Positions 2,104 through 14,891 of a stretch of DNA of 28,682 bases are shown piece after piece. The DNA comes from a virus. Its lineage: Duplodnaviria; Heunggongvirae; Uroviricota; Caudoviricetes. The number at the start of each line of letters is the position of its first letter. Position 1 is the first letter of the stretch. The translations under genes and the position numbers were made by a program. The notes beneath the pieces were generated by a model. That model did not search any database and was not told the DNA's origin. It saw nothing but the letters and a program-made list of their open reading frames with translations. Where the stretch lies: IMG/VR virus record IMGVR_UViG_2671180357_000002, positions 1-28,682 of that record, one strand, 5' to 3'.

Positions 2104-2156
2104 TTGTTACCTATTCTGTTTTGAGATAATAACACCAACAAAAAAACAATTTGTTT
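2104..2156 (+). promoter_or_regulatory. Sigma70-like promoter (-35 TTGTTA 2104-2109, -10 GATAAT 2125-2130) followed by conserved leader ACACCAACAA...AAACAATTTGTTT (palindrome 2144-2156)
   Basis: Hexamers read directly; same leader/palindrome recurs upstream of about ten other genes in the window. Confidence 0.5.
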
Positions 2157-2168
2157 AATGGTGCAATC

Positions 2169-3854
2169 ATGAATACAGCCCTTTCCATCATTGACTCTAT
2201 CACTCCAGACACCGGTATTGACTACCGGCAGGAAATGAATGTTATCCACGAAATTGTGGCCGAATGCGAGAAAGAGATTGCGTTCATGAATAAGGTTCAC
2301 GACTTCGTTTATGGCGACGAACGCCACAACATGATTAACCGTCTACTGCGACTTAACCACCGGCCGGACGACGAGCGCACACGCTTTAACAGAACCTGGC
2401 TGGACAAAGTCGACCTGGAATGGGTGAAACAAAATATCTGGGCCGAGTACTGGAAGAAGGTCACGGATATGACCAACGTTCTGCTGATCATGCCAGCATC
2501 CCGCCGCGACGAGTGGCGTGAACAGTTTATCGAGGGCAAGCAGGAAACGATCAAGACTGACAGAACTGGCTATCAAATGAAGGTTAAAGAGTTCGTTGGT
2601 GTACCTGAGTTCAAAGCAGAAACGGTCATACCAACGATGCTTAATTTGCTGAATGACAGGCACAAATATCTCTCTGAGCGCGTGTATGGCTTGTTTAAGG
2701 CGTTGAGTCCTGCTCACAAGACCAATAAGACGAACGGCTTCAGCGAGCGTCTGATCATCGCCGACTGCATTTCCGATTTCTGGCGGGACAGCGTCAGCGT
2801 TAACTACCGGAAAGAGGATTACATAGACGACCTGCGCGTCATGTTGCATTTCTTTGCACACAAAGAATTTATCACCATCAACCGCACGGCCGAGATGCTG
2901 TCAGCTGCGTATCGAGCAAATGACTGCCAGACCGGCGACTGGATGAATGTCGACGGAAACCTGATGCGTGTGAAGATGTTTAAGAACGGCAACGTTCACT
3001 TTGAAATACATCCTGACGTAGCCTGGAAGCTGAATGAGGTGCTGGCTTACAGTATGCCCGCTGCAATCCCGGCTCCATGTCGTACTGCGCCCAAAACACG
3101 GGCACCAAAACAGTTCGGGTTAATCCAGAAGACGATCTCCGAGCCGGTGCGTACTGCGCTTCGCGACGGGCGATCTGGCAATGACAAACGCGTATGGTAC
3201 TTCTCTGATTCCGGTCTTCAGAAGTCACAGGTGGAAGAGCTGGAGCGTACACTGAGCTTTATTGGCGGCGTGCAGGAGAACAAGCACTGGCAGTTCCCGT
3301 ATGAGATCGGCCATACGCTCAATACGATTGTGGCCACCGGCTTAATACCGGATACAAAATCACACCAGTTCTACCCTACCCCGCGTTTGATAGCGGAGTA
3401 CGTTGCCAGAGCCATCGAGCTGAAGCCAGGTGAGAAGCTGCTGGAGCCTGAAGCCGGGCGCGGAGATCTGCTGGCCTGCATCGACGCCAATCCGGAAGAC
3501 GTTACCTGCATAGAAGTCGCACCTCTCTTCGCTGATATCCTGCTTGGCAAGGGGTACACAAATACGGTCTGCTGCGACTTCATGAAGTGGTCTGAGGACA
3601 ACGCAGGTTATCAGTTCGACAAAATCGTCATGAACCCGCCCTACTCTCTTGGCCGTCACAGAGAGCACACGTTGGCCGCGCTGAGACATCTGAAAGTCGG
3701 TGGGCGTCTGGTAGCAGTGCTGCCGGGCGACGCGCCAATTCTAAACTGGATGACGCTGGATAATTACGTTTATGCCAAAGGGAAGTCGTTTACTAACGTG
3801 TTTGAAGACACCGGGATTACTGTCAGTGTATACGTTTTCAAACGCGTTAAATGA
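2169..3854 (+). CDS. Orphan N6-adenine DNA methyltransferase: ~390 aa unknown N-terminal domain fused to a short gamma-class MTase domain
   Basis: C-terminal region has QFYPTPRLIAEYV, then LEPEAGRGDLL (motif I), then VMNPPYSL (motif IV). ATG at 2169 preferred over the TTG at 2151 used by the ORF track. Divergent from hsdM. Confidence 0.7.
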   Translation: MNTALSIIDSITPDTGIDYRQEMNVIHEIVAECEKEIAFMNKVHDFVYGDERHNMINRLLRLNHRPDDERTRFNRTWLDKVDLEWVKQNIWAEYWKKVTDMTNVLLIMPASRRDEWREQFIEGKQETIKTDRTGYQMKVKEFVGVPEFKAETVIPTMLNLLNDRHKYLSERVYGLFKALSPAHKTNKTNGFSERLIIADCISDFWRDSVSVNYRKEDYIDDLRVMLHFFAHKEFITINRTAEMLSAAYRANDCQTGDWMNVDGNLMRVKMFKNGNVHFEIHPDVAWKLNEVLAYSMPAAIPAPCRTAPKTRAPKQFGLIQKTISEPVRTALRDGRSGNDKRVWYFSDSGLQKSQVEELERTLSFIGGVQENKHWQFPYEIGHTLNTIVATGLIPDTKSHQFYPTPRLIAEYVARAIELKPGEKLLEPEAGRGDLLACIDANPEDVTCIEVAPLFADILLGKGYTNTVCCDFMKWSEDNAGYQFDKIVMNPPYSLGRHREHTLAALRHLKVGGRLVAVLPGDAPILNWMTLDNYVYAKGKSFTNVFEDTGITVSVYVFKRVK

Positions 3855-6271: not shown

Positions 6272-6423
6272 TTATTTCGCTCCATGCATATTGGCCGAAA
6301 TGAGTTCAAACGATACCAATATGAATAATAGAAGCATTACTTTAAGGCACTGTGGATTAAATACAAACCATGGCTACCAACAGAAGTAACAAAAGATACT
6401 GGTTACAAATACCCGTAAATAAA

Positions 6424-6485
6424 TTGTTTTCTACCTTTTCTTGATTGTGATAATAAACCACACAAGAAAACAAATTGTTTAGGAG
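6424..6485 (+). promoter_or_regulatory. Promoter (-35 TTGTTT 6424-6429, TGtGATAAT 6446-6454) + leader palindrome AAACAAATTGTTT (6468-6480) + RBS AGGAG
   Basis: Read directly; member of the repeated cassette family. Confidence 0.55.
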
Positions 6486-6493
6486 TGGCAAAA

Positions 6494-6793
6494 ATGCTGA
6501 ACATTACCCAAGCCTACCAAGTGGCATTGATTAGTGCATCACATACATCAGAGGAAGATGCTCGCCGATTCATGATCGCAAGCAAGGAGCTGGATTGGAT
6601 TTCACAAATTGACTACGGTTGCATAGTTCACGCCGGGTTACAGGATGATGATTGGAAAGATGACTTGCGTCGATACGGTATATCCGAGGGCGCGATTGCG
6701 AACATTCAGAAGGTACTTGATGTAGGCTTTGACTCTGTGCATTTCGATTGTGGAGCACCGGTCGTTGAAGGGCTTGAGTGCTGGAAATGGTAA
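6494..6793 (+). CDS. Hypothetical small acidic early protein (99 aa)
   Basis: ATG 6494 sits 8 nt after AGGAG; by my count ~17 D+E vs ~8 K+R. Confidence 0.6.
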   Translation: MLNITQAYQVALISASHTSEEDARRFMIASKELDWISQIDYGCIVHAGLQDDDWKDDLRRYGISEGAIANIQKVLDVGFDSVHFDCGAPVVEGLECWKW

Positions 6794-6829
6794 TCCGGCA
6801 ATCGTTTCATACAAGATAACGGAGAATAT

Positions 6830-7015
6830 ATGCTTAAAGAGGATTCATATCTTTTAAAGACGCTTGAAATGCGTGGCGTTGAACCTACAGTGAAAAACGC
6901 TCACGATATCTACCTTCAGTTTTCACCGGAACTGAAACGGCTCATAAATAAATATGGAGTGAATGACTCCGGCGTCAAAGCCATGATAGATGATGAATTA
7001 GACCATCTCACCTAA
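6830..7015 (+). CDS. Hypothetical small protein (61 aa)
   Basis: ATG preceded by GGAG at 6821-6824; same strand and operon as the preceding gene. Confidence 0.5.
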   Translation: MLKEDSYLLKTLEMRGVEPTVKNAHDIYLQFSPELKRLINKYGVNDSGVKAMIDDELDHLT

Positions 7016-7353
7016 ATAAACCGTTGACATTGGCGGTCACAAATTGATTCTTTTCTATAAGAATCCGTTGATCGCCACTATTCCCCTTCTATACATTCAA
7101 TCACATCCTTAAATATCAACAGGTTATAGTTGTTTATACCAACAAGAAAACAACTAAATAACAGATCAACGAAACGTCAATGCTTTCCCCCGATTTGGTC
7201 TAAAAAATTGACGTTTTCACACATCACTTCTTATACCCGCAATCCTACGCAGCAGATAGCGCCACAGCGTTCAATTCTCACTACAGACGGACATACACAC
7301 CACCAATAAAAATACACGCCCAAAATCGCTCCCGCTGCGTTACATAACCATAT

Positions 7354-7397
7354 AAACAATTTGTTTTCAGGAATAACAAAACAACTAAATAACACAT
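7354..7397 (+). promoter_or_regulatory. Cassette-family leader (AAACAATTTGTTTT ... AACAAAACAACTAAATAACAC) with no convincing ORF downstream
   Basis: Same palindrome as other cassettes; downstream 7398-8510 encodes only low-complexity ORFs. Confidence 0.4.
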
Positions 7398-7415
7398 ATG
7401 CCATTCCCCAAAACA

Positions 7416-7507
7416 ACCCACCTCTTCCTGTCAGGCTACCGAAAAGACCCACCTCATTGCCCCAGGCTACAGACCACCCACCTAATATCCCCAGGCAACC
7501 GAGAACG
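7416..7507 (+). repeat. Three tandem ~30-bp direct repeats (ACCCACCT-N10-CAGGCWACMG), iteron-like
   Basis: Units begin at 7416, 7447 and 7476; a paralogous triple repeat lies at 11409-11496. Confidence 0.6.
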
Positions 7508-7533
7508 CGGCTCGCACGCGCAAACCCCGATAC

Positions 7534-7826
7534 GTCATTACCCAATACACGGAGAAGAACAGCCAGAACGAAACCCCGGACAAACCCAGACAAGAACAGG
7601 AGCCGTCACAATCTCGTTTACCCACCATTACCCCGAAAGAGAGCGCAAATTCCTGAATAGCAGGGAACGCCATTACTTCATATGCGGAGAACAACTAAAG
7701 CGCCCTACTGCCATTACCCACACTTCCATCAATTCACGTAAACGAAGAGAAAAGCGCACCTGCCATTATTCAATACACGGAGAAGAACACTCCCCAAAAC
7801 GACGAGAACAACCCAGAAAAGAACCA
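7534..7826 (+). repeat. Two ~65-bp direct repeats (7534-7600 and 7761-7826) plus dispersed GCCATTAY motifs in a CA-rich tract
   Basis: Both copies share CATTAYYCAATACACGGAGAAGAACA; the plus strand is strongly C+A rich across 7400-7900. Confidence 0.5.
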
Positions 7827-8064
7827 CCTCAAGAACAATGAAACCACATACGCCGGTAGAAAGAACAAACCACCCATTTCACCCACAGGAATAGTCGCCG
7901 TATTGAGCGTTATCAGAGAGAAGGTTTATGCCCACATAAGAGAGAAAATTTGTGGGAGGTATAAGTGGGAAGGGAAGGAGGGGTATCGCCACTTTCTTCG
8001 TATAAATTCAAGCCATAGTTTTCATCCCCCGTAACGTCCCTTTCCACCCCTTCGGTCAGCCTTC

Positions 8065-8260
8065 GGGCCATCCAGGGAAAAGGCCATGTCCCTTTTCAGG
8101 AACGGGAGCGTCGCCGCAGGGAAAAGGCTGGAGGTTTTCAGGGAAACGGTGGGAATCCCGCTGTACGAACCGGGAAAAGGCTGGCTGCCGGTCGGGAAAC
8201 GGGTACATCCCGGTACAGAGTGAGGGACGACTGCGGGAGCGGTGCGGGAAATCTTCGGGA
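8065..8260 (+). repeat. Array of at least six (C/G)GGGAAA(A/C)GG motifs at 20-30 bp spacing; begins with GGGCCATCCAG
   Basis: Motifs at ~8073, 8117, 8139, 8171, 8193 and 8243; a related module lies at 12106-12298. Confidence 0.55.
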
Positions 8261-8522
8261 GTGCGCCTTACTCTTCACTCGCCTGAAAATCGCGGGGGAG
8301 TGTCATTCCCTCTCGTGCAGCTACTGGACTCCAGTCTGCCAGACCATCATCGGGTCTCAAGCGATTTCAGTAGGTTTTCGGGGAGAAGAAAATTCTGCCC
8401 ACCAGCCCTGCGGCGCGCGTAGAGCAGAATATCGTAAATACTGGTTCCCGTGTCGTTCACGGATATTCACTGCCCAGCCTGGCTTTCACGACATAAAATC
8501 CTTTTTCGCCTTTGTCTTATTG

Positions 8523-8581
8523 CGATAATAACACCAACAAGTAAACAACATGTTTAGACGTTATATAAACGAAGTGAGGAT
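8523..8581 (+). promoter_or_regulatory. Cassette promoter/leader (-10 GATAAT 8523-8528, palindrome AAACAACATGTTTA 8543-8556, RBS GTGAGGA)
   Basis: Variant of the conserved cassette; palindrome core AACATGTT. Confidence 0.5.
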
Positions 8582-8587
8582 GAAGAG

Positions 8588-8806
8588 ATGATTAAGATGC
8601 CTGTGACGGTTGAGGTGTGGGGCGTGGATTCTCTGGCTGAGTGTCTGGATGCAGTGGGGCCGGAGTTGTACCGCAAGTTGTGGTCGTTCGTCCCGGCAGA
8701 AGGGGAATCGCCCAAAGGGAAGGATATCTGGCACCTGCTTAGTGAAGATGAAAAGCGGGAGCTGGTGGACGCGGTACACAGCGAGTTCCCGGACGACGAA
8801 GATTAA
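8588..8806 (+). CDS. Hypothetical small acidic early protein (72 aa)
   Basis: ATG 8588 after GTGAGGA; ~17 D+E vs ~7 K+R; ends in PDDED. Confidence 0.6.
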   Translation: MIKMPVTVEVWGVDSLAECLDAVGPELYRKLWSFVPAEGESPKGKDIWHLLSEDEKRELVDAVHSEFPDDED

Positions 8807-8919
8807 GAGTGAGACCACCAGCACGGTGGCTTTTGTCGCTATTAACCTCCGGGGCAGCGCAGCACCGTAACGATATACTTTGTGGCCGTTTTCTTGCTGG
8901 TATTGTTTACGCAATTCAG

Positions 8920-8938
8920 AAAACAACATGTTTAAGGA
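8920..8938 (+). promoter_or_regulatory. Cassette leader palindrome AAAACAACATGTTTA + RBS AAGGA
   Basis: Same variant palindrome as at 8543-8556, directly upstream of ATG 8946. Confidence 0.45.
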
Positions 8939-8945
8939 TTGCTTT

Positions 8946-9275
8946 ATGTTTGCAAATATCGACATCAACCAAATCAAGAAAATGACTCAAAAAGAGTTTG
9001 ACCAGTTTTATGAGTTAGAAGGTTGGTCTTCCACGCTGATCAATTCGCGCTGGGTGCTTGAGCTGATGACTCGTGATGATGCTCCTGCTTTGATTATTTG
9101 CGACATGGGTGAAGATGCTGACTTTATGGATATGAGCGAATTTTGTGTGGACACATACAACCGCAGCCAGAAGTACTACTTCACATGCGATAGCGAGAAT
9201 GACGTGATTTCTAAGCTCTATCTTCACCTTGTCCAGCATTGGGACGTGCAGGAATTCCTTGAGTTATTCGCGTAA
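8946..9275 (+). CDS. Hypothetical small, strongly acidic early protein (109 aa); DNA-mimic-like composition
   Basis: ATG 8946 lies 7 nt after AAGGA; ~21 D+E vs ~8 K+R by my count. Confidence 0.6.
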   Translation: MFANIDINQIKKMTQKEFDQFYELEGWSSTLINSRWVLELMTRDDAPALIICDMGEDADFMDMSEFCVDTYNRSQKYYFTCDSENDVISKLYLHLVQHWDVQEFLELFA

Positions 9276-9285
9276 GCCCAACCAA

Positions 9286-9306
9286 AGCCAGCACCGCCTG
9301 CTGGCT
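9286..9306 (+). terminator. Hairpin AGCCAGC-accgcct-GCTGGCT after the gene ending at 9275
   Basis: 7-bp perfect stem; followed by the conserved GCCGCAGGGAA motif. Confidence 0.5.
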
Positions 9307-9411
9307 TAACTTCTCTGTAGCCGCAGGGAAGAACCACCTTTAGATAATTCATGTGCCTGAGCAATATGCTTTGTAGCCGTTTTTACACTGGTATTATTTA
9401 CGCCATTGAGA

Positions 9412-9430
9412 AAACAATTTGTTTACGGAG
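9412..9430 (+). promoter_or_regulatory. Cassette leader palindrome AAACAATTTGTTTA + RBS CGGAG
   Basis: Directly upstream of ATG 9436. Confidence 0.5.
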
Positions 9431-9435
9431 TGGTG

Positions 9436-9747
9436 ATGAATACTTCATTGGCGCTGGGTCTTGCTGAAGGCCAGGAGAGAAAAGAAAAACCAACCTTAAT
9501 GGGGCATCTCACATTGCTGGATATCGTAGCGAATGGGACTTCTATCCGTCTGTTTCGTGAAAAAGCCATTACCTTCGACGCGGGCAATTTTACGCGCTAT
9601 GTGATGGTAGTTCGTCGCCAGCGTGGAAGAGGGTGGATGTCGGTCCAGAAAATGTGGCCAGAGGACCAGCTTGAACTGGCGCTGATGGAAGCCAACCGTG
9701 TCGCCCAACAAGAGATCCAACGAGCGTCTGTTCAGGCGGTAGCTTAA
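9436..9747 (+). CDS. Hypothetical small early protein (103 aa)
   Basis: ATG 9436 lies 5 nt after GGAG; preceded by cassette leader. Confidence 0.55.
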   Translation: MNTSLALGLAEGQERKEKPTLMGHLTLLDIVANGTSIRLFREKAITFDAGNFTRYVMVVRRQRGRGWMSVQKMWPEDQLELALMEANRVAQQEIQRASVQAVA

Positions 9748-9781
9748 ACATGTGCAAGCAGTAGTTAGTCGAATGTACGAC

Positions 9782-9809
9782 AGCCCCGCCAATCCTTCGG
9801 GGCTTTTTT
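9782..9809 (+). terminator. Intrinsic terminator AGCCCCG-loop-CGGGGCT + T6
   Basis: 7-bp GC-rich stem followed by TTTTTT. Confidence 0.8.
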
Positions 9810-9836
9810 GTATTGTAAGTACTTACTTATGATAAT
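9808..9836 (+). promoter_or_regulatory. Sigma70-like promoter (-35 TTGTAT, -10 GATAAT, 17-nt spacer) whose spacer contains palindrome GTAAGTACTTAC (9815-9826)
   Basis: Hexamers and palindrome read directly; the same palindrome recurs at 22371-22386 and as variants at 16841-16852 and 25812-25831. Confidence 0.5.
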
Positions 9837-9868
9837 AAAATTAAAAATTAAACACTAAGGAGAGTGAA

Positions 9869-10264
9869 ATGACCGTTAAACGCGAAAATCTGACCCTGGA
9901 TATGTATTATGCATCAGAGACGGAAAATGGAGACAAAGTTGCAAAAATTACAATTGTGCTACGCGATAATGCCTCCGGCGAAGAAGTTCACACCAGTACC
10001 TTAACTCGCACCGGCGAGGCCACAAAGGGAAAATATTCGGTGCGTTACCAAAGCATCAGTAATGCTTCTGACCCTTTACTGATAAAACTGGAAACTCATT
10101 TCCGTGGCGCGGATCAGACGTTGTTTGAAAATTTGATGAAAAAGGTCGATGCGGTTTATACATCGAGTTTAAATACCAATAGTACCTGGATGGGACAACA
10201 CGGTCTGCGAATAATCTCCGGCGAAAAGATCGACACCATTGTCCCTGAAAGCGTATTCGCTTAA
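9869..10264 (+). CDS. Hypothetical protein (131 aa)
   Basis: Strong RBS AAGGAGAG 5 nt before the ATG; bounded by intrinsic terminators on both sides. Confidence 0.7.
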   Translation: MTVKRENLTLDMYYASETENGDKVAKITIVLRDNASGEEVHTSTLTRTGEATKGKYSVRYQSISNASDPLLIKLETHFRGADQTLFENLMKKVDAVYTSSLNTNSTWMGQHGLRIISGEKIDTIVPESVFA

Positions 10265-10273
10265 TCCTCTTTG

Positions 10274-10300
10274 AATGGCGCGTAAACCGCGCCATTTTCT
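10274..10300 (+). terminator. Intrinsic terminator AATGGCGCG-taaac-CGCGCCATT + T-run
   Basis: 9-bp perfect stem followed by TTTTCTT. Confidence 0.8.
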
Positions 10301-10310
10301 TATTCCCGAT

Positions 10311-10347
10311 AACAATTTGTTTTCTGCCTTATCTGATTTGTGAAAAT
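10311..10347 (+). promoter_or_regulatory. Promoter: palindrome AACAATTTGTTTT overlapping -35 TTGTTT, extended -10 TGtGAAAAT
   Basis: Same promoter block as at 4604-4634 and 6424-6454. Confidence 0.55.
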
Positions 10348-10381
10348 GATTTCACTGAAGCAACTTAATAAGGATACCATC

Positions 10382-10756
10382 ATGGGACTTGATATCTATA
10401 TCGAGACGCAGCCTAAAAACGATCTGAATAACGAGGCATCCAGAAAGCAGGTTGCTTACTTCCGTAAGTTCAATGCGCTCGTTGGGTGGATGGAGCGCAA
10501 CGTAGGTGAAGTCGAAAATTGTGAGCTTTTAGAATTAACGATGAATGACATTTGTTTTCTGAAGGCTCATTTGATGCACATAAACGAAAGTAATTGCGAA
10601 GTGTACTTACCTACCCGGGAAGGTTTTTTCTTCGGCAGTCAGGAGTACGATGAAGGTTACTGGCATGACGTGGATAAGCTGAAAAAACTTGTGGAAGACC
10701 TGATCAGGAACCACGACTTTCACAATAACAGACTGACGTTCCGTGCCTGGTGGTAA
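10382..10756 (+). CDS. Hypothetical small acidic early protein (124 aa)
   Basis: ATG 10382 lies 7 nt after AAGGA; upstream ATGs fall inside the promoter. Confidence 0.6.
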   Translation: MGLDIYIETQPKNDLNNEASRKQVAYFRKFNALVGWMERNVGEVENCELLELTMNDICFLKAHLMHINESNCEVYLPTREGFFFGSQEYDEGYWHDVDKLKKLVEDLIRNHDFHNNRLTFRAWW

Positions 10757-10758
10757 AT

Positions 10759-10902
10759 ATGGGCGATTTCAAGAAACGCCTGAAGGAGAGAGCCGAGATG
10801 GTCAGAAAGCGAAACGCCTCTTCTGTCATAAGATACGCAAGGCAGTTTAGTCGCAACAACAAATCAGTTGAGGAAAAGATCCTTAGCGTAATCGGGCGAT
10901 AA
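10759..10902 (+). CDS. Possible small basic protein (47 aa; alternative start ATG 10798 with SD AAGGAGAG)
   Basis: Found by manual translation (below the ORF-track size cutoff); start overlaps the upstream stop (TAAATATG); followed by a hairpin at 10908-10931. Confidence 0.3.
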   Translation: MGDFKKRLKERAEMVRKRNASSVIRYARQFSRNNKSVEEKILSVIGR

Positions 10903-10907
10903 TTATT

Positions 10908-10931
10908 AAGGCCACCAGCATTGGTGGTCTT
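10908..10931 (+). terminator. Hairpin AAGGCCACCA-gcat-TGGTGGTCTT
   Basis: 10-bp stem with one mismatch; near-identical to the hairpin at 11379-11402. Confidence 0.5.
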
Positions 10932-11040
10932 AAATGACTTTTAATAACCGAAGGTTAGTTTGAAACCTGGCTATCAACTTCCAGAACCTTTCTTGTGTAT
11001 TCAGCCTGTATTAACTTCTTTTATGCCTTATCTACACTGC

Positions 11041-11084
11041 GATAATTACACCAACAAGAAAACAATATGTTTACGCAGTGAGGA
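11041..11084 (+). promoter_or_regulatory. Cassette promoter/leader (-10 GATAAT 11041-11046, AAAACAATATGTTTA 11059-11073, RBS GTGAGGA)
   Basis: Variant of the conserved cassette. Confidence 0.5.
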
Positions 11085-11091
11085 TATGCTC

Positions 11092-11373
11092 ATGACTGAT
11101 TTCACCATTACCCCTAAAGCACAAAATGTATTCCTTGAATCATGGCTGGACTTGCCGGAAACAGAACAGCAAGAAATGGATCATGTGGAATATGACGAGC
11201 AGGTAAGCACGCGATTCTTCCACTTTGAGGGCTGCGTTTACGACATTGCCGACTTCATGCGAGATGACCGCTTCCCTGAATGGCACGCAAGCTATCCACT
11301 AAACGCCTTCGCCATGCTGATGATCCGTGTGGATGATTCAGGGGATACCATCGACATCGGTCTGCTCCACTAA
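11092..11373 (+). CDS. Hypothetical small, strongly acidic early protein (93 aa); DNA-mimic-like composition
   Basis: ATG 11092 lies 7 nt after GAGGA; ~20 D+E vs ~5 K+R by my count. Confidence 0.6.
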   Translation: MTDFTITPKAQNVFLESWLDLPETEQQEMDHVEYDEQVSTRFFHFEGCVYDIADFMRDDRFPEWHASYPLNAFAMLMIRVDDSGDTIDIGLLH

Positions 11374-11378
11374 AGAGT

Positions 11379-11402
11379 AAGGCCACCAATGCTGGTGGCC
11401 TT
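11379..11402 (+). terminator. Hairpin AAGGCCACCA-atgc-TGGTGGCCTT
   Basis: Perfect 10-bp stem immediately after the stop at 11373. Confidence 0.55.
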
Positions 11403-11408
11403 GAATGA

Positions 11409-11496
11409 CCATCCTGTTTCCCGCAGGCTAAAAACACCAACCTCTTACCTCCAGGCAACCGACAAACCCACCTGTTCCCGTCCGGCTACCGCAACT
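11409..11496 (+). repeat. Second copy of the triple ~30-bp iteron-like direct repeat
   Basis: ACCAACCTCTTACCTCCAGGCAACCG and ACCCACCTGTTCCCGTCCGGCTACCG match the units at 7416-7507. Confidence 0.6.
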
Positions 11497-11502
11497 TTCC
11501 AC

Positions 11503-11570
11503 TTTGACGCCTTATTCGTACAACGATAATTAACACCAACAAGAAAACAATTTGTTATTTACGATAAGGA
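11503..11570 (+). promoter_or_regulatory. Cassette promoter/leader (-35 TTTGAC, -10 GATAAT 11525-11530, AAAACAATTTGTTA 11545-11557, RBS AAGGA)
   Basis: Best-formed example of the conserved cassette. Confidence 0.6.
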
Positions 11571-11577
11571 ATTAATC

Positions 11578-12060
11578 ATGAATTTTATCGCTACTGTAAA
11601 CGCACCCGCACATGGCAATATCGCTGTAACGTTCTCTGATATTGAAAAACGAGTACTTGGTGCATGGCGCGACAATGAGACGGTAGAACTGTCAGCACAA
11701 GAAAAATGCATTATTGCACGCGACATCATTTGCAAACGTCGTTACTCACGGGTAATTGAGAAAGCGTATGTCGCAAATTCTGGCTTCGGAACATTTGTCT
11801 TCCCGGTACGCTCCGGGCGATTCTGCCAGTCCAAGCTGATTGAGTTCGCTACGCAGATTTCTGTCTGGATTAAAACTCAATCGTCGTTCAAATTTTCCGA
11901 CGATGAAGCAGTATCGCAGGGGATGCGGATCGCCAACAATGCAATAAAATGCAAAAACATTACGTATGCCGCTGGCGTTGACACATGGAAACTGTTTTGC
12001 GCTAACTTTATGCTGAATGTATACGCAAGCAACCGCATCCACATCCTTGATGGCGTGTAA
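11578..12060 (+). CDS. Hypothetical protein (160 aa)
   Basis: ATG 8 nt after AAGGA; followed by an intrinsic terminator. Confidence 0.65.
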   Translation: MNFIATVNAPAHGNIAVTFSDIEKRVLGAWRDNETVELSAQEKCIIARDIICKRRYSRVIEKAYVANSGFGTFVFPVRSGRFCQSKLIEFATQISVWIKTQSSFKFSDDEAVSQGMRIANNAIKCKNITYAAGVDTWKLFCANFMLNVYASNRIHILDGV

Positions 12061-12068
12061 CTGAGAAG

Positions 12069-12090
12069 AGGGCCAGAAACGGCCCTTTCT
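12069..12090 (+). terminator. Intrinsic terminator AGGGCC-agaaac-GGCCCT + TTCT
   Basis: 6-bp GC stem directly after the stop at 12060. Confidence 0.7.
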
Positions 12091-12105
12091 CTATAGCCAC
12101 CAGCT

Positions 12106-12298
12106 GCCGCAGGGAAATTTTCAGAAACGGCGAGGAACGCATTCATGAGCCGACGGGAAACGGCCAGGATTTTTTCGGGAAACGGCGGGGGTCGCCTTTA
12201 TGTAGAAAACTGAGCGGGAGAAACCCGGAATCGCGCCAGAAATTGCGTAGCGGCGCTGGGGTAGCGCTGGTGGGGGTTTCAGCCCCTGGGCCATCCAG
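12106..12298 (+). repeat. Second GGGAAA(C)GG motif module, ending with GGGCCATCCAG
   Basis: Shares GCCGCAGGGAA and GGGCCATCCAG with the module at 8065-8260; no ORF. Confidence 0.5.
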
Positions 12299-12612
12299 AT
12301 AGCTTTCGCTATGTGATTATGTGAATCCGTGGGTAAATCACTGTAAGCGCGTACACGTTGCCCAACGTGGCAATCATATGCGAGCGGATACAAAACAACA
12401 CAAAGAGCCGATCCGCGCCGACAAATAAACGCGGATCACATAGCAAGACTAAAAGCCAATGATTAACCATACTCTATAGCGCAATATAACGCGTTTTAAG
12501 CGCGTTAATGTGTTAAGTAATGGGTATGTACTAACAAGGATATAAAAGCGCGTCTATGGCGTTATTTTGGTGCTTATTTTTATGTTGTTGAAGCGAGTTA
12601 AAGACAATAAAA

Positions 12613-13936: not shown

Positions 13937-14464
13937 TTAAAACGGTAAAATTCGTTCGACCCAATCGAACATGGCGACTGTCTTCCTACCGTCCCCCATG
14001 TTGAGTGTGACCTGACAAGCGTCAACGCCTCTTGACACCCCTTCTATTTCACGACCGTCCGCCATGTAGACCCTTATAGACTTCTGCATCTCATGGGCCT
14101 GGCGACAAATTTTGAAGAAATCACGGCGAGATGGCCGATTGTCCACATAGTCTGGGTGTATCGTTGTCCGACCCGTGAAGTCGTGTGCAATGCCTTCTGT
14201 CACACCTGATTCAATCGTGCTGATTCGCTCAAGTGGGAGCCTTATACGATTATCTTTGTCGAACGGGGCAGGGCAAAGATCGACCTTGTTGCGTGACGAC
14301 ATGAGACCCTGAACATACATGCAGAACACCTGACCATCTTCCATCGTGACCCTTACAGGAATAAGAGATTTGCGCCAGAACATCAGCGCTTTCTCCACGT
14401 TGGTGTAATCGCGCGGCCAGACTTCTGCAGGAATCCCGTAGGTGATGTCAGTAATATTCGTCAT
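13937..14464 (-). CDS. Hypothetical protein (175 aa) with two beta-barrel-like segments
   Basis: Start at ATG 14464 (4 nt after the lipoprotein stop) chosen over the longer overlapping ORF to 14575. Confidence 0.55.
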   Translation of the reverse strand: MTNITDITYGIPAEVWPRDYTNVEKALMFWRKSLIPVRVTMEDGQVFCMYVQGLMSSRNKVDLCPAPFDKDNRIRLPLERISTIESGVTEGIAHDFTGRTTIHPDYVDNRPSRRDFFKICRQAHEMQKSIRVYMADGREIEGVSRGVDACQVTLNMGDGRKTVAMFDWVERILPF

Positions 14465-14468
14465 ATCG

Positions 14469-14891
14469 TCACAGTGTCGTTGGTAAGATGTCGATGTCAC
14501 CAGCATTACTGGTGAACACCCGGAAGACTTTCGTCTCGCCAGCTTTGGTAATCGTCTCGCGTTCCTGACGAGCAAGATTCAGTGCGCACAGCCCAGCGCC
14601 TTCGAGTGAGGCGCCAACAATCCATTCTCCGGCATTCAGATGAAAAGTGACTTTTTCACCTGTTTCCAGTTTTGCAACGGTTTCGCCATTGATGAAGATC
14701 GATGCGTCGCAACCGGCGCCCACCATGCTTTTATCTCTCATAACCACCAGCGTCGATGCCGCCGGAGATTGGTATTTGAATATTCTGGCCTGCGGTGCTG
14801 GCTTTGCCTCAGAGACAGGAATAGGACGAGATTGACATGCAGTGATAAGTAACGCGGAGGCAGCAACCAGAGGAAGTAATACGTGTTTCAT
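14469..14891 (-). CDS. Putative lipoprotein (signal peptide with lipobox)
   Basis: From Met 14891: MKHVLLPLVAASALLITAC-QSRP, a canonical lipoprotein signal peptide with lipobox ITAC. The upstream ATG at 14927 would put the start inside a hairpin with no RBS. Confidence 0.65.
   Translation of the reverse strand: MKHVLLPLVAASALLITACQSRPIPVSEAKPAPQARIFKYQSPAASTLVVMRDKSMVGAGCDASIFINGETVAKLETGEKVTFHLNAGEWIVGASLEGAGLCALNLARQERETITKAGETKVFRVFTSNAGDIDILPTTL

Follow-up and report, generated by a model that had tools for sequence, protein, structure and literature searches.

What do the small, strongly acidic proteins that a phage-plasmid of Escherichia coli encodes side by side contribute to its life, and do they act as DNA mimics against host defences? 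This question is raised by an array of ten small genes (g1 to g10) in a stretch of 28,682 nucleotides (nt), positions 1 to 28,682 of the IMG/VR virus record IMGVR_UViG_2671180357_000002 (Caudoviricetes), whose full length is called here the window. An earlier note, made from the letters of this DNA, had proposed that five of the array proteins are DNA-mimic anti-defence candidates of the kind represented by Ocr and ArdA. The account that we consider best, and to which we give about even chances, is that the array consists of accessory cassettes of the lytic programme encoding protein-binding inhibitors. The degrees of confidence attached below to the different readings overlap and are not meant to total one.

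The 5-kb stretch holding the array shares 98.7% identity with pGS04EC-1, a non-mobilizable IncFIB plasmid from E. coli, and parts of it recur in about 770 plasmids found in Klebsiella, Escherichia, Enterobacter, Yersinia and Salmonella. Among phages, CMS-2020a, PhiR41_1 and Cyrano show about 89% identity to it, and Salmonella phage SSU5 gives a partial match. Because of these plasmid and phage relatives, and because phage and plasmid genes are found together in the window, which also encodes terminase, portal, capsid, ParB-like, helicase, HsdM, DUF4942, S24-peptidase and FljA-like proteins, the window is identified on sequence grounds as an SSU5/pHCM2-type phage-plasmid of E. coli. E. coli, Salmonella Typhi, Shigella, Klebsiella and Yersinia commonly harbour phage-plasmids of this type, which bear resistance genes. 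The small-gene array is a variable accessory region of the element.

The genes of the array are real and under purifying selection. Every start codon comes with a Shine-Dalgarno sequence and the starts match the RefSeq calls in pGS04EC-1; moreover, when orthologues from Cyrano, PhiR41_1 and SSU5 are compared, the ratio of non-synonymous to synonymous substitution rates (dN/dS) lies between 0.07 and 0.21 for every gene (0.11 for g1, 0.13-0.18 for g3, 0.07-0.09 for g4), which indicates that they are constrained. The products are not without family, as had been supposed: g1 matches Pfam DUF5983 (PF19419) above the cut-off (E=3.9e-12; 46.7 bits for a cut-off of 27; residues 12-99 on positions 3-90 of the 90 of the model), and all genes except g8 match PHROG families lacking an assigned function. 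The close homologues of g1, which also belongs to phrog_5003, carry the same precomputed DUF5983 domain, and its orthologues are found at 93% identity in E. coli phage-plasmids and at 44% in SSU5 and Klebsiella relatives. g3 (phrog_6757) is conserved at 75-97% identity across the SSU5 supergroup and has a weak homologue in a Pseudomonas phage, and g4 (phrog_7645) occurs only in E. coli SSU5-like elements. Literature searches with the PHROG numbers gave no relevant result.

A recount of acidic (D+E) and basic (K+R) residues agrees with the earlier hand counts to within one residue. Four of the five proteins then called acidic, g1, g3, g4 and g9, are strongly so, with isoelectric points (pI) of 4.1-4.5, but g7 is only mildly acidic (5.17). 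Net charge per residue of the acidic proteins is -0.09 to -0.16 (-0.12 to -0.16 for g3, g4 and g9), and the four lowest pI values of the window all fall within the array. In pGS04EC-1, a pI below 4.5 is found in 6 of the 108 annotated coding sequences translated, four of the six being in the array; when only proteins of up to 160 amino acids (aa) are considered, the array contributes 4 of its 9 and the rest of the plasmid 1 of 37 (Fisher one-sided p=0.0035, post hoc), so that the clustering of acidic small proteins does stand. The most acidic protein of pGS04EC-1 (58 aa, pI 4.05, -0.24 per residue) is encoded outside both array and window, at 88217-88393 of the record (L010 1218-1394).

The clustering could be incidental, if small soluble phage proteins are often acidic and the region merely gathers small open reading frames (ORFs). 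In favour of this, only half of the array is acidic, no paralogy links the acidic proteins (the sole mutual match is that between g1 and SSU5_105), a similar charge density is seen in two large proteins encoded elsewhere in the window, and the enrichment was tested post hoc; on the other side, the difference appears among small proteins of one and the same element, the pattern recurs with other families in SSU5, and acidic positions are conserved in the family of g9, so we hold this explanation to be unlikely. In the SSU5 version of the region, 7 of 15 small proteins have a pI of 4.05-4.52 and several of them have no counterpart in the window. For example, SSU5_104 (L003 4396-4632), an acidic DUF1380 protein of pI 4.46, is encoded 5' of the SSU5 DUF5983-like gene and an acidic protein of 63 aa is encoded 3' of it; the left end of the array thus corresponds to a different small acidic set in SSU5.

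What most of these genes have in common is their cassette anatomy. They form eight transcription units (g1-g2, g3, g4, g5, g6, g7-g8, g9 and g10), each with a hairpin, and the view that every gene is individually promoted and terminated therefore largely holds, except that g1-g2 and g7-g8 share a unit. g2 is probably co-transcribed with g1, since the gap of 36 nt between them contains no hairpin. Seven of the units begin with a repeated promoter element of about 65 nt, the promoter of g6 being different, in which an extended -10 (TGnGATAAT or TGgTATTrT), the sequence ACACCAACAAG, the palindrome AAACAAnnTGTTT and the Shine-Dalgarno sequence follow each other in this order. These promoters were overlooked by a simple promoter scan because they lack a good -35. 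Directly 3' of the stop codon, each unit has a GC-rich hairpin; those following g5 and g6 are classic intrinsic terminators, and those following g3, g8 and g9 share one core. The coordinates are collected in Table 1.

The palindrome, of 13 bp, has 13 sites in the window, where shuffled sequences lead one to expect 0.97, and the count for the whole plasmid is 19 sites, located 5' of lytic operons. Outside the array it precedes the genes for a DnaB-like helicase and an AAA ATPase, a cobT-like gene, the gene preceding the large terminase, Rha and the DUF4942 gene. Palindrome and cassette are kept in SSU5, Cyrano and PhiR41_1, the former with invariant arms and two variable central bases. It sits at a fixed 13-14 nt from the -10 (TGnGATAAT-N13/14-AAACAAnnTGTTT), and between 11 and 32 nt separate it from the ATG; the site of g7, and a second copy belonging to g1, instead cover the -35 region. 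A role as an mRNA hairpin was considered and set aside, the RNA hairpins that the palindrome forms being weak and its spacing being tied to the -10 rather than to the ATG. Taken together, the fixed and variable spacings and the weak RNA hairpins argue for a putative DNA operator of a dimeric regulator, centred near +13. This palindrome looks like the mark of a genome-wide regulon that would comprise helicase, ATPase, terminase operon, Rha, the methyltransferase-like gene and the accessory cassettes; the DUF4942 gene is counted in it because it has the same promoter and operator cassette. A literature search with the operator sequence found no description of the palindrome.

Two further loci of the window touch this putative regulon. 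The product of the gene at 13937-14506 (-) matches Pfam Flag1_repress (FljA family, phase-1 flagellin repressor; E=8.7e-95); relatives label it as a transcriptional regulator or repressor, and it is one candidate for binding the shared operator or leader. Another candidate for the operator is the homologue of CYRAN_45, a putative repressor in Cyrano. The DUF4942 gene (561 aa; 2169-3854, +), whose product is labelled DNA methyltransferase in the SSU5 annotation, is adjoined by the gene for HsdM, the methyltransferase subunit of type I restriction-modification systems (391-1953, -; E=8.9e-121).

When are the cassettes expressed? For Cyrano, those genes whose expression is 5-fold or more over background in LF82 lysogens have been listed (PMC9928086, Table 1). 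The list includes the neighbourhood genes CYRAN_99, 102, 109 and 117, and the orthologues CYRAN_101 (g1), 105 (g4), 108 (g7) and 110 (g9) are not on it. Because these orthologues are off the list and the operator is shared with lytic genes, we infer that the array would be silent in the plasmid state and expressed in the lytic programme. The early timing of expression that had been assumed stays a conjecture; the same operator is also found 5' of helicase and terminase genes.

The units also differ in their histories. PhiR41_1, whose host on record is E. coli K-12 MG1655, lacks g9, and SSU5 lacks g4, g7 and g8, other genes occupying their place; in Cyrano, a MinD-like gene and a MetRS gene lie immediately upstream. 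Presence and absence between relatives concern whole units. The synonymous substitution rate (dS) with respect to Cyrano is 0.04 for g9, 0.12-0.31 for g10, g7, g1 and g4, and above 2 for g5 and g6. Neighbouring cassettes compared with the same relative thus range from 0.04 to 2.7, a spread of up to 60-fold, which implies separate histories.

A possible mechanism follows from this organization. About eight self-contained cassettes, each made of an extended -10 sigma-70 promoter, the palindrome AAACAAnnTGTTT, a small ORF with its Shine-Dalgarno sequence and a GC-rich terminator hairpin, would be controlled through the palindrome, which most likely serves a dimeric repressor of the element as its operator. 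In the plasmid state this repressor would silence them along with the helicase, terminase, Rha and methyltransferase-like genes, and on infection or on induction of the element all cassettes would switch on together. The four unrelated acidic cytoplasmic proteins (72-109 aa) could then work as stoichiometric binders blocking basic nucleic-acid-handling proteins of the host, inhibition of defence systems being one plausible class of targets among several. Several points weigh against this account: (i) the acidity enrichment was tested after the cluster had been noticed; (ii) the array also encodes the neutral or basic proteins g2, g5, g6, g8 and g10; (iii) no likeness to known anti-defence proteins was found in Pfam, PADLOC, NCBIfam and PDB sequence searches or in the fold of g9; (iv) acidity varies within the g9 family (pI 4.05-6.7); (v) the repressor is putative and the transcription starts are predictions; (vi) the g8 orthologue CYRAN_109 stands at 6-fold over background in lysogens (PMC9928086, Table 1), so that repression may be leaky or partial.

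The same evidence bears on the alternative that the acidic proteins serve the element's own biology, through host takeover (with RNA polymerase, nucleoid proteins, replication or division as conceivable targets), as antirepressors or operator mimics directed at phage repressors, or by excluding competing elements. The operator is common to replication and packaging genes, and regulators are close by, namely Rha in relatives and the S24 peptidase and the FljA-like repressor-family protein in the window. Moreover, the high conservation of g3 and g9 across the SSU5 supergroup, under strong purifying selection, is more that of core accessory genes than of genes in an arms race, and the g9 family is present also in virulent phages of several genera. 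Against this, g9 is missing from PhiR41_1 and g4, g7 and g8 from SSU5, so none of these is essential, and the support for such a role is no more direct than that for anti-defence. We consider it a possibility of some weight, though on the doubtful side.

Among the array proteins, g9 is the most acidic, and its family is widespread in phages. The protein matches phrog_1845 over 93 of 93 positions (E=4.2e-59) and, like g3, keeps 75-97% identity throughout the SSU5 supergroup. When the g9 alignment was used for an exhaustive HMMER search, 78 representative clusters were retrieved, with proteins about 90-100 aa long; all 56 aligned remote relatives match phrog_1845 and essentially none match Pfam. 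They are encoded by phages of Edwardsiella, Vibrio, Pseudomonas, Pectobacterium and Rhodococcus, virulent ones included, and in the Pectobacterium and Edwardsiella phages their neighbours are hypothetical proteins only; the contig that encodes one further remote homologue (P0059) spans just 1.2 kb. The pI is below 5 in 45 of the 56 members. Since D or E is conserved at positions 20, 25, 28, 30, 35, 54 and 85, with an acidic segment at residues 20-39, the charge of the family is position-specific.

The g9 model obtained from a deep alignment has a predicted local distance difference test score (pLDDT) of 95, shows a compact beta-rich globular domain, and is the only confident model of an array protein; it supersedes a first AlphaFold2 model built on a shallow alignment (pLDDT 66). 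No solved structural neighbour was found in the fold search, Foldseek against the PDB was empty for the shallow model, and a search of BFVD returned only uncharacterised members of the family itself. An assignment of g9 to PADLOC Dsr1 was discarded as being at chance level (E=0.021, 10.5 bits). In RefSeq and in many other records g9 is named 'ABC transporter'; the protein has neither an ABC domain nor a Pfam match, and the name looks like a propagated annotation error.

Could at least one of the acidic proteins nevertheless be a DNA mimic, occupying the DNA-binding sites of restriction-modification, BREX, CRISPR or RecBCD? The charge per residue of g3, g4 and g9 falls within the range of small DNA mimics such as Ugi, AcrIIA4 and gp5.9. 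DNA mimics have many unrelated folds. The acidic genes appear co-regulated with the methyltransferase-like gene through the shared cassette, and the g9 family carries a conserved acidic patch. In addition, the only anti-defence gene that DefenseFinder detects in SSU5-group elements is Rad, in 16-22% of them (bioRxiv 10.1101/2025.09.12.675607); as recognised anti-defence genes are so few in this group, uncharacterised ones may exist and fill the role.

Several results count against mimicry. The searches made for the array gave no match to Ocr, ArdA or anti-defence families in Pfam, PADLOC, NCBIfam or PDB sequences: Ocr (PF08684) was not matched by any of the ten array proteins in Pfam at E up to 1, nor in PDB sequence searches at E up to 10 that included the g9 family profile; ArdA (PF07275) was matched neither in Pfam nor in the PDB, and the acidic array proteins have 72-124 aa against about 165 aa in the three-domain ArdA; PADLOC gave nothing credible for the array proteins and NCBIfam nothing at E up to 0.1. 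The structure prediction, too, speaks against it, the compact beta-rich globule of g9 being unlike the elongated helical Ocr and ArdA and showing no elongated charge ladder, and no other solved mimic resembles the proteins in sequence or fold. Ocr has a net charge of about -0.24 per residue, and that of the array proteins is weaker. Finally, few of the known anti-defence proteins are DNA mimics, namely 11 of the 268 in EVADES (bioRxiv 10.1101/2025.06.06.658234). For the acidic proteins, a part in anti-defence or as DNA mimics is plausible as a candidate function, and mimicry by one of them or more is in our opinion quite improbable.

Two other resemblances were rejected. The match of g2 to the T7 gp5.9 RecBCD inhibitor (PF25708) is below the cut-off (E=0.029, 17 residues) and is ascribed to chance. 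That of g4 to potato multicystatin (4lzi) has a whole-sequence E of 3.7e-5 arising from three repeats of F.D...F.V..YN; single repeats give E of 11-350, and too few residues follow the motif for a cystatin fold.

A broader reading takes the array as a repressor-controlled counter-defence island in which at least one acidic family would be a new defence inhibitor; we regard it as rather unlikely, and g9 (phrog_1845) would be the best candidate for that inhibitor, with its fold lacking a solved relative, its conserved acidic patch and its occurrence in at least 78 clusters from both temperate and virulent phages of Enterobacteria, Pseudomonas, Vibrio and Rhodococcus. The four small acidic genes under one shared operator are presented as candidates for counter-defence or host-takeover roles, a level at which their function stays. 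If phrog_1845 were a true inhibitor, the result would extend to many unrelated phages, and the palindromic operator would define the lytic regulon of the whole SSU5 group. Both matters are relevant to the establishment of SSU5/pHCM2-type phage-plasmids in new hosts, a little-understood step.

Table 1. Genes, predicted signals and palindrome positions of the array and its regulon (window coordinates unless the plasmid record is named)
Feature	Coordinates (strand)	Product	Signals and remarks
g1 promoter cassette	6417-6480 (+)		palindrome 6417-6429 over -35; extended -10 TGtGATAAT; GATAAT 6449-6454
g1 palindrome 3' of -10	6468-6480		centre at about +13
g1	6494-6793 (+)	99 aa; D+E 17, K+R 8; pI 4.47; net charge -9
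g2	6830-7015 (+)	61 aa; pI 5.2; phrog_11467
g3	8588-8806 (+)	72 aa; D+E 18, K+R 7; pI 4.33; net charge -11	GATAAT 8524-8529; palindrome 8543-8555; terminator 8815-8829
g4	8946-9275 (+)	109 aa; D+E 21, K+R 8; pI 4.19; net charge -13	-10 TATTGT 8901-8906; palindrome 8921-8933; hairpin about 9285-9307
g5	9436-9747 (+)	103 aa; basic, pI 9.8	-10 TATTAT 9392-9397; palindrome 9412-9424; classic terminator about 9782-9810
g6	9869-10264 (+)	131 aa; pI 5.9	distinct promoter 9813-9841; terminator 10273-10297
g7	10382-10756 (+)	124 aa; D+E 21, K+R 14; pI 5.17, mildly acidic only	g7-g8 unit: palindrome 10310-10322 over -35; -10 GAAAAT 10342-10347; hairpin 10906-10933
g8	10750-10902 (+)	50 aa; pI 11.3	overlaps g7
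g9	11092-11373 (+)	93 aa; D+E 20, K+R 5; pI 4.13; net charge -15	GATAAT 11041-11046; palindrome 11060-11072; hairpin 11378-11403
g10	11578-12060 (+)	160 aa; basic, pI 9.2	GATAAT 11525-11530; palindrome 11545-11557; hairpin about 12063-12091
DUF4942 gene cassette	2110-2171 (+)		same promoter and operator, 5' of 2169-3854 (methyltransferase-like)
Palindrome AAACAAnnTGTTT, window	2144, 4597, 6417, 6468, 7354, 8543, 8921, 9412, 10310, 11060, 11545, 20394, 20419
Palindrome AAACAAnnTGTTT, pGS04EC-1 record	13903, 31976, 34905, 85117, 86088		additional to the window

The array is divided by a stretch of 1.57 kb without a credible gene (7016-8587), which is 73-84% conserved with Cyrano, PhiR41_1 and SSU5. 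It is considered non-coding because many of the insertions and deletions with respect to the relatives are not multiples of three; the annotation of the equivalent region in relatives includes improbable ORFs of pI 11. Two promoter cassettes without a gene lie in it (7130-7166 and 7361-7397), and the stretch may encode non-coding RNA transcribed from these orphan promoters. Rfam gave only a chance microRNA match on 6900-8650 and zero matches at gathering thresholds in the window, in which no tRNAs were found, and the RNA folding of 7880-8500 is no better than that of shuffled sequences (z=-0.08).

The part from 7400 to 7880 is strongly C/A-rich and G-poor (GC skew -0.28), and contains three 30-nt repeats in tandem (7415-7504), as well as four copies of CATTACCCAATACACGGAGAAGAACA. 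Two further copies of the 30-nt repeat (CACCnACCT...CCAGGCnACCG) are located at 11435-11494, between the g9 terminator and the g10 promoter. An iteron-like motif, GGGAAA(A/C)GG, is present in five copies at 8075, 8119, 8141, 8172 and 8194, with a spacing of 22 nt found twice, and again at 12155 and 12177, 22 nt apart; further segments are shared between 8050-8210 and 12100-12300. The two blocks flank the g3-g10 part of the array; a secondary origin, partition or the binding of a regulator are conceivable roles for them.

How does the array compare with known systems? Ocr (T7 gp0.3) and ArdA are, like the acidic array proteins, small acidic proteins of mobile elements, and the array proteins, like them, would probably be made on entry. 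Ocr (PDB 1S7Z) and ArdA (PDB 2W82) are elongated and largely helical, Ocr being a dimer in which carboxylates take the place of the phosphates of bent B-form DNA. The array proteins have no sequence or fold similarity to them, have a lower charge density and are shorter than ArdA, and g9 is predicted to be compact and beta-rich. DUF5983/YeeW-like genes adjoin the CbtA-CbeA toxin-antitoxin genes in CP4-type islands of E. coli (PMC10790755; bioRxiv 10.64898/2026.06.09.728211); unlike at these loci, no CbtA or CbeA gene is near g1. With the morons of temperate phages the array shares the arrangement in autonomous transcription units between conserved genes; morons, however, are defined by expression from the repressed prophage, whereas the Cyrano orthologues of g1, g4, g7 and g9 are off the lysogen list (PMC9928086, Table 1) and the cassettes share their operator with lytic genes.

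The closest architecture is that of the promoter early stem-loop (PeSL) cassettes in the hyperplastic regions of T4-type phages (PMC2839356, PMC4122927), where a repeated promoter and a stem-loop flank small uncharacterised ORFs and whole genes are gained, lost and replaced between relatives. The repeated promoter and leader and the hairpin cores shared after g3, g8 and g9 could, by analogy with PeSLs, be points of recombination, and the cassette-wise mosaic divergence fits recombination at the array repeats. The array is an analogue of these regions, not a member: its motif is not the T4-type early consensus, its host is a temperate siphovirus-type phage-plasmid rather than a T4-like myovirus, and its cassettes carry a palindromic operator that is also found 5' of core lytic operons. 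In this last respect the array resembles the C1 regulon of P1, another phage-plasmid in which one operator is dispersed over many promoters, including those of accessory genes. The C1 operators of P1 are asymmetric 17-mers, and the 13-bp palindrome of the array has no sequence relationship to them; in both cases, a single dispersed operator would allow the coordinated release of the genes placed under it.

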